From Granulosicoccaceae bacterium (lineage in GTDB: Bacteria; Pseudomonadota; Gammaproteobacteria; Granulosicoccales; Granulosicoccaceae), in contig JAZGEF010000003.1 in NCBI GenBank assembly GCA_036478595.1, positions 125,043-189,042 on the forward strand: a stretch of 64,000 bases of DNA, written 5' to 3'. Shown in pieces: positions 8,463 through 11,977 of this stretch (position 1 is its first letter; every line of letters begins with the position of its first letter). The notes below the pieces were generated by a model. It ran no database searches. It was not told the DNA's origin and saw only the letters and a list, made by a program, of their open reading frames with translations. The position numbers and the translations under genes were made by a program.

Positions 8463-10117
8463 ATGAATACCAAAATGACTTACCGCGCCGGCACCGGCAT
8501 ATGTCGGCCAACAGCGCTTTTGATAACTGTCATCGTATTATCAAGCGTGGCACTCTTTTCCTGTAGCGGATCGTCGAACTCCGGCTCGACGCCTTTGGAC
8601 GATACAACGAATCTGCGCAATCTCACGGTATCGTTCGATACGCCGGAGCGGCTACAACTGATCGGTACCGCCCTCACCGCGACGGTCACGGCGGGCGCAT
8701 CCGAACAGCCTATGGACCCTGTAGGGATAGGCTTCGAGTCCACATTGAACCTACCTAAGGAACAGCAACTGCTGGTGTACGTTGGTGTTCGGCGCGCCGA
8801 CGATGGGTTGTTACTGGCCGCTGCCAACACCACTGCCAGACTCAGCGAAACCGACACCACCATCAGTCTCCCAGAACAACTCTTTGTCTACGACTTCGAT
8901 CTGGACGGTGACGGCATTGACAATATCATTGAGATCGAGCGCGGCAGTTCACCCACTAGCCAGAGCCTAGATTTCGATGCTGATGGCCAACCCGATGACA
9001 TTGATCAGGACGACGATAACGACGGCGTCCCCGACGCGGTAGATGCGTTCCCATTCAACAGCCTAGAGTACGAGGATACCGACGACGATGGCATCGGCAA
9101 CCAAGCCGACCATGACGACGACGACGACGGTGTGGCTGACGAACGCGATGCCTTTCCACGGGATGCCAACGAGTTCGTGGACAGCGATAACGACGGTATA
9201 GGTGACAACCAAGACACTGACGCCGACGGTAACGGCATTCAAGACGACCAAGAAGACTCCGACAATGACGGTGTGCCTGATCAGATCGATGCCTTTCCCA
9301 ACGATCGTTACGAATCAGCCGATGCCGATGGCGATGGCATTGGCGACAATCAAGACGATGACGACAACAACAATGGAGTAAAAGATTATCGAGAAGGCTC
9401 CCAGATCGTCATTCCCTATGTCGACAACGCCAGCATCGATATCGATGGCGTCTGGAACAATTACTACGACTACAACACCTCGAATTACCACGATGAATGG
9501 GGCAAGGCTACAGACAATGACTCCTACGGGAACTACCTTTCGCTGGAAAATCTGCTTATCGACAACACGGGCAGATGCGATGACGACAACTACTACTCTT
9601 GTCGCAACAACTACCTGCATTTTCAGATGTGCACGATGGTGAGTATCTTTACGCCAAGATTGCGGTCGAAGGCGAGCAGCTCGAAAACTGGTTCAATGAT
9701 TCCACAGATGCGTGGCAGGACGACTCAGTCGAGTTGTACTTCGACGTAGGTTACGATCAACTGGATGCCTATGGAGACGACGATTACCAGCGAATTTTTC
9801 GCTTTCGCGATACCGTGGATAACCCGACTGTCGACGGCTTCTACTCCGCCGCTGGCATGCAAACGGACTTTGTCACCAGCTATCGACACGAAAACGACAG
9901 CACTGATGTGTACCAGCAACTCTACGAGATACGCGTCAAGCTCTCATCGATAGGCCTTGTGCCCGGAGAAACCTTTGGCCTTGAAATAGCCGCAAACGAC
10001 GATGACGACGGTGGCGATCGAGACTACAAATGGGGCTGGTGGGCACTGCCCGGCTTTGACAATGCCTGGCAACAACCCAGCGTTTTCGGTAAGGCAAAAC
10101 TGCAACCCATAGACTGA
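8463..10117 (+). pseudogene. lipoprotein with thrombospondin type-3 (Ca-binding) repeats and a C-terminal CBM9/DOMON-like domain, split by a 1-bp frameshift near 9630
   Basis: lipobox-like ALFSC; repeated DxDxDGxxD/DAFP units; the CBM9-like domain starts in ORF 8463-9749 (IDIDGVWN) and continues in ORF 9599-10117 (HDGEYLY, WQDDSVELYFD, AWQQPSVFGKAKL); junction TTT CAG ATG TG CAC GAT lacks one base. Confidence 0.75.
8895..9385 (+). repeat. coding Asp-rich TSP3-like repeats
   Basis: three DAFP-containing units and multiple D-x-D-x-D-G-I-G-D/N-x-Q motifs. Confidence 0.8.
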
Positions 10118-10229
10118 GTGATGCGTGTGCAGACAGGATCGGCGGTTCGCAAGTTCGCCTCATATGATAGTTAATAGAGCTATCAGAATATAAAGTTTAG
10201 GGCCTGCGGAGGTTAGCAGTGTATAGAAC

Positions 10230-10475
10230 CTAGGCGGGATCAACAGGGGCGCTTAGCCGGGCGGCCTACCGTCGCCGACAAGGTCGGCGGTTCGCAGGAT
10301 CGGCTTCAATTAGAAAGCTGAAGTTTGCGCTGAGATAAAAAGTGGTGGAGCTAGGCGGGATCGAACGGGGCGGCCACCCGTCGCCTACCTGGTCGGCGGT
10401 TCGCAGGATCAGCTTCAATAAGAAAGCTGAAGTTTTCGCTGAGATAAAAAATGGTGGAGCTAGGCGGGATCGAAC
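10230..10475 (-). repeat. tRNA-linked tandem repeats (about 109-121 bp) containing copies of the tRNA-Ala 3' end
   Basis: TGGTGGAGCTAGGCGGGATCGAAC at 10343-10366 and 10452-10475 (period 109); degenerate CTAGGCGGGATCAAC at 10230; shared body GGTCGGCGGTTCGCAGGATC.GCTTCAAT.AGAAAGCTGAAGTTT.CGCTGAGATAAAAA twice. Confidence 0.9.
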
Positions 10476-10527
10476 CGCCGACCTCTTGCGTGCCACGCAA
10501 GCGCTCTCCCAGCTGAGCTATAGCCCC
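10452..10527 (-). tRNA. tRNA-Ala(GGC)
   Basis: GGGGCTATAGCTCAGCTGGGAGAGCGCTTGCGTGGCACGCAAGAGGTCGGCGGTTCGATCCCGCCTAGCTCCACCA, 76 nt, encoded CCA, G3-U70. Confidence 0.97.
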
Positions 10528-10567
10528 ACAGTTGGGAACCGAAGATTAAAACTCCGGCGCTAATCTG

Positions 10568-11977
10568 TCAAGCACCAGCGCTGCTCCATTGTGAAATAGC
10601 GCGTTCTAGCCGGGTTAAGACCTGTTCCTTGCCAATTAAGGCGAGAGTTTTATCCAGCGCTGGGGATGACGTATTGCCTGTTAAGGCCACACGCAAAGGC
10701 AGGCCTACTTTGCCAAAGCCTATATCCTGCTCAGCAACGCTTGCCTTGACGGCCTCATCAATCGCAGTATCCTTCCACTCAGACAAAGCGTTCAGCTTGT
10801 CAGCGACATGCTGCAGGATCGCCGGCGTTTCGGGTTTGATTTGTTTTTTCATCGCCTTTTCATCGTAGTGCTCAGGCGCCTGATAAAACATAGTGGCTAC
10901 TTGCGCCATCTCTACCATCGTTTTAGCCCGGTCTCGCAATAGATCAGCCACCGCACTCACTGCTGGGCCACCATCGATACTGATACCCGCACTTATTAAA
11001 TACGGTAACAAGGCATTGCCCAAGGCTGCCGCTTCACTTTCTTGAATATAATGTTGGTTAACCCAATTGAGTTTCTGATTATCAAACACCGCGCCAGAAC
11101 GATTAACAGCATCTAGCCCAAACAGTTTTATCATCTCTTCACGCGGGAAAATTTCTTGATCTTTGTGTGACCAACCCAAGCGCACTAGATAGTTGAGCAA
11201 ACCTTCAGGAAGATAACCCTCTTTCTTGTATTGCATTACACTCACAGCACCATGTCGTTTTGACATGCGTTTGCCATCCTCTCCCAATATCATAGGCAGA
11301 TGCGCGTACACCGGTAACGTTGCACCTAGGGCTGCAAGAATGTTTATTTGCCTTGGCGTGTTGTTTACATGGTCGTCACCACGTATCACGTGAGTGATTT
11401 TCATATCCATATCATCAACAACAACAGTTAGGTTGTATGTTGGCGTGCCATCGCTGCGCATGATGATCAAATCATCAAGCTCGCTATTCTCAATAACAAT
11501 TTCGCCTTTAACCGCGTCATCAATTCGCACAGCGCCATCAAGTGGGTTGCGGAAACGCACAACGGGTTCGACGCCGGCTGGCGGGCTATCGCTGCGGTCG
11601 CGCCAGTAACCGTTGTAACGCGGCTTCTCTTTGGCTTTCATTGCCGCTTCACGCATCTCATCTAGCTCGGCCGGTGTGCAATAGCAGTGATACGCGTGGC
11701 CAGATTCCATTAGCTGATTAACGACTTCGCGATAACGATCAAAACGGTGTGTTTGGAAAATTGGGCCCTCGTCGTACTCCAGCCCTAGCCATTCCATACC
11801 ATCAAGGATCGCTTGCACCGATTCATCAGTTGAGCGAGCACGGTCGGTATCTTCAATTCGTAATATAAACTCCCCACCTTGCTGCCTGGCGAACAGGTAA
11901 CAAAATAAAGCCGTACGTGCGCCACCTATGTGTAGGTAGCCGGTGGGGCTGGGGGCAAATCGGGTTCTGACAGTCAT
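10568..11977 (-). CDS. gltX: glutamate--tRNA ligase
   Basis: [37 protein letters not shown]; start moved to ATG 11977. Confidence 0.97.

Follow-up and report, generated by a model that had tools for sequence, protein, structure and literature searches.

Inverted tRNA copies in the trailer of a Granulosicoccaceae tRNA-Ala(GGC) gene: probable parts of an X-type tRNA-linked repeat family

The stretch of DNA analysed here (the window) comprises 64,000 nt of contig JAZGEF010000003.1 from a Granulosicoccaceae bacterium, and its sole tRNA gene is tRNA-Ala(GGC), located at 10452–10527 on the minus strand (ARAGORN; Rfam tRNA, 62.7 bits). The locus is arranged in the order gltX, tRNA-Ala(GGC) and an array of two-and-a-bit tRNA-linked repeat units, each of which contains a short inverted copy of an internal segment of the tRNA, termed here the box. 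A first-pass annotation, made from the sequence alone, had pointed out these boxes and proposed that they represent a cis-acting switch of tRNA maturation, an anti-tRNA small RNA or inverted recombinase sites. Our analysis indicates that the boxes are very probably a standard part of a tRNA-linked repeat module, called X-type here after an insert (X) that is not of tRNA origin, rather than a locus-specific switch, and that this class of module is uncatalogued. The parts of the array are as follows.

10452–10527, minus strand: tRNA-Ala(GGC) gene (ARAGORN, Rfam), with tRNA positions 45–57 (variable loop, 5' strand of the T-stem and start of the T-loop) at 10471–10483.
10404–10451, minus strand: spacer of unit 1, 48 nt, with a small hairpin (TCAGCTT/AAGCTGA); its sequence is unconserved between species.
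10391–10403, minus strand: box 1, an exact inverted copy of tRNA positions 45–57 (repeat search).
10382–10390, minus strand: direct arm 1, AGGTAGGCG, a copy of tRNA positions 44–52 with one change.
10366–10381, minus strand: X insert 1, ACGGGTGGCCGCCCCG, a conserved GC-rich mini-hairpin between tRNA positions 52 and 53–54 of the direct copy.
10343–10365, minus strand: tail 1, TTCGATCCCGCCTAGCTCCACCA, a 23/23-nt copy of the tRNA from the T-loop (T54) to CCA.
10295–10342, minus strand: spacer of unit 2, with ~92% identity to the spacer of unit 1.
10281–10294, minus strand: box 2, an exact 14-nt inverted copy of tRNA positions 44–57 (repeat search).
10273–10280, minus strand: direct arm 2, TGTCGGCG, predicted to pair with box 2 as a CGCCGAC-CTT-GTCGGCG hairpin (RNAfold).
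10244–10272, minus strand: long X variant of unit 2, 29 nt, ACGGTAGGCCGCCCGGCTAAGCGCCCCTG (from the printed sequences).
10220–10243, minus strand: tail 2, TTGATCCCGCCTAGGTTCTATACA, a decayed copy of the tRNA 3' end (repeat search).
10137–10149, minus strand: third, lone box, with 11 nt exact (GATCGGCGGTTCG on the plus strand) and no arm, X or tail after it.

Read on the tRNA strand, the trailer consists of two tandem 109-nt units with 91–92% identity, followed by the lone third box, which is the decayed far end of the array. The repeat begins at the first base past the CCA of tRNA-Ala, and in each unit a 48-nt spacer that contains a small hairpin precedes the box (CGAACCGCCGACC), which is followed by 2–3 nt, the direct arm, the X insert and the tail. 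In both units, the box is an inverted copy of tRNA positions 45–57, and a sense copy of the sequence that it complements is located downstream of it. The long X of unit 2 has a near-identical counterpart in the insert of the module behind tRNA-Ala of another species, Granulosicoccus G006.

The antisense boxes are real and beyond chance. The 14-nt inverted match between 10281–10294 and 10471–10484, the 13-nt match between 10391–10403 and 10471–10483 and the 11-nt match between 10139–10149 and 10471–10481, all of which had been reported in the first-pass annotation, were each recovered at 100% identity in a repeat search. Their target, 10471–10484, is made up of tRNA positions 44–57, from the variable loop through the T-stem 5' strand to the fourth base of the T-loop. 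When up to two mismatches are allowed, the 13-mer GGTCGGCGGTTCG occurs at four sites in the 64 kb, all within 350 nt at this locus and three of them exact, and by simple arithmetic a trailer of 450 nt is expected to contain ~4e-4 exact 13-nt inverted matches to a 76-nt tRNA. The CGCCGAC-CTT-GTCGGCG hairpin described for the second unit is likewise predicted by RNAfold. The statement that the boxes are identical while their flanks have diverged applies only to the side facing the X insert and the tail; it does not hold on the spacer side, because the units are ~92% identical over 108 nt. What had gone unmentioned is that, immediately after each box, the same tRNA segment is repeated in direct orientation and a copy of the last 23 nt of the tRNA comes next, and this arrangement changes the way in which the boxes should be read.

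To place the array in its genomic context, the trailers of all 35 tRNA genes in the assembly were scanned for sense and antisense copies of the tRNA. Behind the initiator tRNA-Met (contig C24), CGAACCTACGACC, the inverse of its own positions 45–57, is followed by GGTCGTAC, the X insert ACCGATGGCGGCCCCG and TTCGAATCCTACCCC. This X-type unit of tRNA-Met(CAT) (C24:1950–2130) is single, and its acceptor end has decayed, with CCTACCCCGGTCCAGC in place of CCTACCCCCGCTACCA. Behind tRNA-Phe (contig C53), a box/arm palindrome, CGAACTGCCGAC-TTG-GTCGGTAGTTGGAC, was found. The complete unit of the window has no second copy elsewhere in the genome, and a dispersed family resembling repetitive extragenic palindromes (REPs) or miniature inverted-repeat transposable elements (MITEs) was ruled out because the whole 193-nt unit has no other genomic copy.

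Related modules are present in other genomes. The Ala(GGC) module was found in six Granulosicoccus species (G006, G009, G011, G015, G016 and G021) and on two metagenome contigs, the tRNA-Met module in G006, G016, G434 and a Granulosicoccaceae metagenome-assembled genome (MAG; L077) in addition to the genome of the window, and an Ala(TGC) module inside the rRNA spacer of one species (G430). A pattern scan for X, the T-loop, N12 and CCA in one genome per species, covering 185,579 species, returned 48 loci. It yielded 35 distinct modules that lie directly behind, and on the same strand as, the tRNA whose tail each of them copies, and six further loci (L071, L085, L103, L074, L110 and L113) at which a module has no upstream tRNA in view; the rest are chance matches in GC-rich coding DNA. 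The tRNAs followed by modules are Ala(TGC), Ala(GGC), Met, Arg, Thr, Phe, Cys, Gly and Pro, and the hosts include Halieaceae, Microbulbifer, Marinobacterium, Reinekea, Enterovibrio, Photobacterium and Parasalinivibrio. The X-plus-tail core alone is found behind 10 or more tRNA species, and its hosts belong to several families of Gammaproteobacteria. Modules occur sporadically from species to species, and in several genera they are located within rRNA operons, between tRNA-Ala and the 23S gene. A search of 400 class-level genomes with the X and T-loop pattern gave only one match, in a coding region. Among metagenome loci around gltX homologues (73 tRNAs), the module was confined to two Granulosicoccaceae contigs that are nearly identical, and these loci included no relative close enough for an insertion-polymorphism comparison. 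In the rRNA spacer of Marinobacterium aestuariivivens (L078, 2896–2998), between tRNA-Ile and tRNA-Ala, we also observed a partial second copy of tRNA-Ile that has a 19-nt insertion in the anticodon loop and lacks CCA; CGGATGGWTGAAG, a sequence similar to the start of X, is common to the spacers behind the two tRNAs.

The general organization of the module is a spacer of ~48 nt with free sequence, the box, 0–4 nt, a direct copy of tRNA positions 45–52, X (15–16 nt) and a direct copy of positions 53–76 to CCA. Units occur singly or as several tandem copies, two plus the lone box in the window and one to six at other loci. The box is present in only part of the family, namely 26 modules in Granulosicoccaceae and Halieaceae; boxless members carry a direct copy from the anticodon loop, or an unrelated hairpin, ahead of the arm. 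The arm, X and tail are the invariant core of the family.

As the first-pass annotation had anticipated for relatives, the box co-varies with the T-arm and tracks the local tRNA in every case. Boxes behind tRNA-Ala exist in four T-stem variants (GGTCGGCGG, GGTCCGCGG, GGTCTGCGG and GGTCAGCGG), and those behind tRNA-Met (GGTCGTAGG), tRNA-Arg (GGTCGCAGG) and tRNA-Phe (TGTCGGCAG) also match the local tRNA. Such agreement has no diagnostic value, since box, direct arm and tail are all copies of the tRNA; the complementarity of the box reflects its origin from the tRNA rather than evolution towards the tRNA as a target. Mismatches between the box and the inverse of its own tRNA number 25 in 338 positions over the 26 modules, and the direct arm shows 23 edits in 208 nt. 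At positions where the arm deviates, the box agrees with the tRNA, and no compensatory changes between box and arm were seen. In G009 (L018), the box and tail imply a U49:A65 pair in the T-stem, whereas the resident tRNA and the direct arm have C49:G65. Therefore, this module either predates the present T-stem of the tRNA or came from another host.

A three-helix fold was evaluated in a 13-sequence alignment, in which the 5' part of the box pairs with the GTTCG after X, the 3' part of the box pairs with the arm, and X forms a hairpin. In this fold, 87.4% of the cells pair, compared with 78.8% in shuffled controls (0 of 500 reached the observed value) and 17–37% with slid partners, although much of the pairing and covariation in the helices follows automatically from the origin of both arms as tRNA copies. 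Evidence independent of tRNA copying comes from the X hairpin: C-G-G NNGG C-C-G and C-C-G NNGG C-G-G are perfectly associated in 29 of the 29 distinct variants, and both pair states are found within the Met, Ala and Pro modules and within Granulosicoccus. The covariation of this pair suggests that X works, or is made, as a folded single strand. In such a strand, the box would pair with the direct copy that is split around X, so that the variable-loop/T-arm duplex would be rebuilt with X bulged out.

Sequence conservation differs along the module. Spacer identity between species is at the random level (0.51–0.52 versus 0.48–0.49 after shuffling), whereas the core from the box to CCA shows an identity of 0.73–0.84 (0.66–0.86 without the tail). 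In G016, two units have near-identical cores and unrelated spacers; in the window, the spacers of the two units match each other, and the X/tail half of unit 2 instead matches the G006 module. These patterns indicate that the units are mosaics. Tail decay grows with distance from the tRNA in the window, in G016, in G021 and in a six-unit tRNA-Thr array.

Several other explanations of the unit were tried and rejected. A tRNA-like fold was discarded because there is no conserved 5' acceptor strand; GAAGCTG in the window spacer pairs with the tail at 6 of 7 positions, and other species show nothing of the kind. Units alone, including a 78-nt piece, fold no better than shuffled sequences (RNAfold). 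A role as an intrinsic terminator was rejected because no terminator-like site was found on the tRNA strand, and an origin by reverse transcription, with snap-back at modified bases, because the starts of the copies (32–35 or 44–45) do not fit the known hard stops. The hairpin of the unit 1 spacer (10409–10430) is terminator-like only on the plus strand, for transcription from a converging gene that encodes a CBM9 protein. On that strand, two overlapping open reading frames (ORFs) in different frames, 8463–9749 and 9599–10117, the second with the CBM9 domain, may together represent a single gene interrupted by a frameshift or by an error in the sequence.

The first-pass annotation knew of no described precedent for such boxes, which is wrong at the level of the class. 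Tandem tRNA-linked repeats (TLRs) have been known in Escherichia coli since 1978, with their function and origin unexplained (PMC8144298); 22 repeats at ten loci each end in 18–19 nt of the upstream tRNA or 5S gene (PMC8144298). We found little literature on TLRs beyond this source. The corresponding Rfam family is RtT (RF00391; gathering score, 45 bits), with rttR located in the tyrT-tyrV operon and RrA/B/F behind 5S rRNA. No circular-DNA evidence exists for rttR in a mobilome preprint (10.1101/2024.07.17.603846). In the RtT consensus fold, an antisense GgGaaGG pairs with the tRNA-derived CCuuCcC of the tail, indicating that antisense tRNA copies inside trailer repeats are already part of a catalogued family. 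E. coli TLRs and X modules alike immediately follow a tRNA or rRNA gene, in its orientation, either singly or as several tandem units; an E. coli locus has one to five, often in tandem. In both, the unit ends with an exact copy of the last 18–23 nt of the upstream gene, and its stems are formed by internal segments antisense to tRNA-derived sequence.

X modules nevertheless match RtT in neither sequence nor structure. The RtT model recovered four units in the tyrT-tyrV region of E. coli used as a control (133–137 bits), but it gave no match in the window at 9900–10800 (E<=10) or in the Met, Ser, Marinobacterium and Enterovibrio loci (E<=1). Compared with RtT, the X-module unit is shorter (~110 nt versus 130–178 nt), its antisense segment copies positions 45–57 rather than the acceptor/T-stem 3' strand, and its conserved core is only the 15–16-nt X hairpin at T-stem position 52/53. 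The X-type module is thus a variant distinct from RtT and absent from Rfam. Other Rfam candidates were rejected: only tRNA and rRNA were found at this locus and its sister loci, and weak matches to tmRNA_permuted and Plastid-ycf2 reflect the T-arm. A separate observation in this genome concerns two tRNA-Ser genes (C69:196545–196700 and 288625–288797; L115 and L116), which have homologous trailers of ~155 nt with a terminator-like hairpin. Both trailers finish in a copy of the last 19 nt of the tRNA, and their 3' part (..GGGGTGAGG-hairpin-GAATAATCC) is RtT-like by eye, with no match to Rfam RtT.

Tyrosine integrases of genomic islands and phages duplicate tRNA 3' ends as attL and attR, at T-loop and anticodon-loop sublocations, and the resulting structures include remnants resembling cis-mobilizable elements and tandem accretions. 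X modules resemble these duplications in being direct repeats from the T-loop (or the anticodon loop) to CCA with older, decayed copies further out. They differ in that most X units are gene-free and ~110 bp long, those in the genome of the window have no integrase nearby, and modules also occur inside rRNA operons. Furthermore, a tRNA 5'-ward segment in both orientations plus an insert such as X is not known from classical attP sites.

The X core was found at island borders in three other genomes, in two of them together with integrase genes or remnants. In the Cellvibrionales MAG G440, an integrase gene lies behind tRNA-Arg(ACG) at a contig end, and an X module on a separate contig carries a sense copy from the anticodon loop and an identical 23-nt tail; this module is 3 kb from an integrase fragment, adjoins ORFs that are GNAT-like and ParE-like by eye, and has a terminator behind it. 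A single contig of Marinobacterium stanieri carries tRNA-Phe, a terminator, integrase remnants, an ORF, an X module and a diverged copy of the terminator. In M. stanieri, the direct repeat at the far end of the apparent element is on the contig of the tRNA and the integrase remnants; the arrangement in G440, where the tRNA and integrase are on one contig and the X module is on another, is suggestive of the same. In both genomes, GCCGTAAGTRATTGA is located 71–72 nt upstream of X, and G440 has another copy at −117; these copies look like putative arm-type binding sites. In the third genome, MAG G441, a VapBC-like pair is flanked by an X module and a decayed 3' part of tRNA-Ser, with no integrase in view.

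A comparable arrangement exists in the genome of the window. At C53:222157–223910 (L029, 658–2410), a Fic-family gene lies between tRNA-Phe(GAA) and a perfect 24-nt copy of its tail. The tRNA-Phe box/arm palindrome is located 48 nt downstream of the tRNA, ahead of the Fic gene, and the 24-nt copy is preceded by the sense sequence of tRNA-Phe positions 42–53, a 15-nt palindromic insert (CAGCAGCGGCTGCCG) placed at the tRNA position where X lies in the modules, part of a tail and an antisense box. This stretch contains neither X nor an integrase. Beyond it, we observed by eye a DUF433-like ORF, a PIN-toxin/antitoxin-like pair and a helicase-like ORF. In the window units, the "element" between the tRNA and the tail copy is the 48-nt spacer only. 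The region downstream of gltX-tRNA-Ala is variable among Granulosicoccus species, with P4-type integrase-like ORFs (by eye) in two of them; the P4-like integrase islands (by eye) behind tRNA-Ala in G012 and G003 were rejected as a source, because neither genome has a second tail copy.

Among the explanations offered in the first-pass annotation, recombinase sites fit the wider evidence best, given the island borders, the integrase genes or remnants and the decaying arrays, and the switch and the anti-tRNA RNA fare worse. We tentatively favour the reading that the modules are recombination products at the tRNA T-loop, either att-type junctions or miniature derivatives, that were later duplicated, are decaying and are passively transcribed; we put it forward with due reserve. 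Under this reading, the modules would arise at the DNA level by recombination at the T-loop of the tRNA gene, as att-type junctions of integrative elements or as miniature non-autonomous derivatives of them. The element side would end in the arm plus X, and the junction would lie between G53 and T54. Arrays would grow at the tRNA-proximal end, or through unequal crossing-over between the 23-nt tails, while distal units would decay and the trailer would be transcribed only passively.

Several findings weigh against this reading. Units of ~110 bp are too small for circularization as duplex DNA, spacer lengths are fairly uniform (45–60 nt), unlike the outcome of random island deletion, and rRNA operons are costly integration sites in which transcription is certain. 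The covarying X hairpin implies a single-stranded form, either RNA or single-stranded DNA, and conserved cores with random spacers would also fit purifying selection in place on a functional RNA. The neighbours in the window are housekeeping genes (gltX, clpB and a PP2C phosphatase gene) and the gene for the CBM9 protein. The genome has nine matches to the tyrosine recombinase family PF00589, none of which is on the contig of the window (C3) or on those of the Met and Phe modules. In 41 Granulosicoccus genomes, X was found only directly behind tRNAs and never at a distant island end; no second tail copy was found in thirteen species that lack modules; and no module was detected among 2.9 million viral contigs, where all 11 matches were coding or chance.

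By analogy, X modules could also be folded attachment sites of a tRNA-anchored cassette system comparable to integron attC arrays, an idea that we regard as unlikely. The box in single-stranded DNA would pair with the split direct copy and rebuild the T-arm duplex, X would serve as an extrahelical marker, and a tyrosine recombinase would exchange strands between G53 and T54, so that cassettes ranging from empty (~50-nt spacers) to gene-bearing (Fic, VapBC-like or whole islands) would stack behind the tRNA. By comparison with integron attC sites and other folded single-strand sites, such as the attP of CTX phage, X modules may be viewed as imperfect palindromes in which an inverse-core arm (..CGAAC) would pair with a core (GTTCG..), with a junction between G and TT. 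Further possible parallels are an extrahelical element (X), a structure that covariation would conserve, and arrays of similar sites with unrelated inserts, some of which carry toxin–antitoxin or Fic genes. Unlike attC, the sequence of the site is dictated by the neighbouring tRNA, and most spacers are too short for coding. No integron integrase or attI was identified in searches with the general Pfam integrase family, no IntI-specific model being run. If the idea is true, cassette logic could account for the origin of the E. coli tRNA-linked repeats.

Apart from recombination, the module could be a structured trailer RNA of the tRNA-linked repeat kind, which we consider possible, though on the doubtful side. 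The unit would be co-transcribed with the tRNA and would form a three-way junction with the box/arm helix and the X hairpin; its CCA tail would let tRNA 3' processing (an RNase E cut downstream and exonuclease trimming) set its end; and the released ~110-nt RNA, or the structure in cis, would function as a processing aid, protein sponge or decoy, as proposed for RrA/B/F of E. coli. The design is that of the E. coli TLRs, the repeated 3' end of which is thought to guide RNase E and some of which are expressed small RNAs (PMC8144298). The covariation of the X hairpin and the conservation of the core against a random spacer agree with this explanation, modules in rRNA operons are necessarily transcribed, and the stretch from the tRNA to the units has no predicted intrinsic terminator on the tRNA strand. 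However, distal units are decayed down to a lone box at the array end, occurrence among species is sporadic, no Rfam family was matched, and the X core is also present at the island borders of three genomes. The tail is unpaired in most members, so that a stable 3' end is not obvious. 3'ETS-leuZ is likewise a tRNA trailer able to yield a separate RNA after RNase E cleavage (PMC8144298), but it is a short sponge for small RNAs that lacks a copied tRNA end, and X modules show no evident pairing with a target.

We consider it quite improbable that the box acts as a cis switch or an anti-tRNA RNA, in which it would invade the variable loop and T-arm while the tail replaces the 3' acceptor strand, thereby gating the processing or yield of tRNA-Ala. 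The predicted energetics of T-arm invasion, as envisaged in the first-pass annotation, are favourable: in the RNAfold minimum-free-energy structures of all four precursors (four species), tRNA positions 45–57 pair with the box and the 5' acceptor strand with the module tail, with a free-energy difference of −5.4 to −21.5 kcal/mol relative to the native tRNA plus the local trailer fold (tRNA plus one unit). These energies leave out co-transcriptional folding and the tertiary contacts that stabilize the tRNA, which folds first during transcription, and pairing with the adjacent arm would give a local hairpin favoured on kinetic grounds. The box resembles the tRNA more faithfully than the direct arm does, and the lone third box and the sense-then-box pair behind tRNA-Phe would fit pairing with an upstream partner. 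Nevertheless, sister modules with the same X core and tail lack the box (for example in Microbulbifer and Marinobacterium, and behind tRNA-Thr, -Cys, -Gly and -Pro), indicating that the family does not depend on antisense pairing. Furthermore, the box of G009 retains an A opposite the resident C49, uncompensated mismatches are also present in G006 and G021, and units decay away from the tRNA. The reading least worthy of belief is a neutral accident, namely a tandem duplication of the tRNA 3' end and trailer with a chance inversion by template switching and no function or dedicated mechanism. The window units are tandem copies with 92% identity, the unit as a whole sequence is unique in the genome, and unequal crossing-over between the 23-nt tails would readily alter copy number. 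However, many tRNAs in several families are followed by the same multi-part grammar, with the non-tRNA X inserted at one and the same position of the tRNA copy, and the cores are conserved where the spacers are randomized; we judge the accident to be near refutation by this family-level recurrence.

In this study, we found that the locus belongs to a second, much simpler family of tRNA-linked repeats, the grammar of which is legible base by base. Its members follow ten or more tRNA species in marine Gammaproteobacteria of several families and occur in two settings, as minimal 110-nt units and at the borders of gene-carrying islands. The X-type family makes the old question of whether such repeats are RNAs or recombination sites directly testable. 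The results also provide a caution against taking the built-in self-complementarity of a trailer for regulation, and even if the modules are only scars, they would still explain a recurrent and confusing feature of tRNA trailers.

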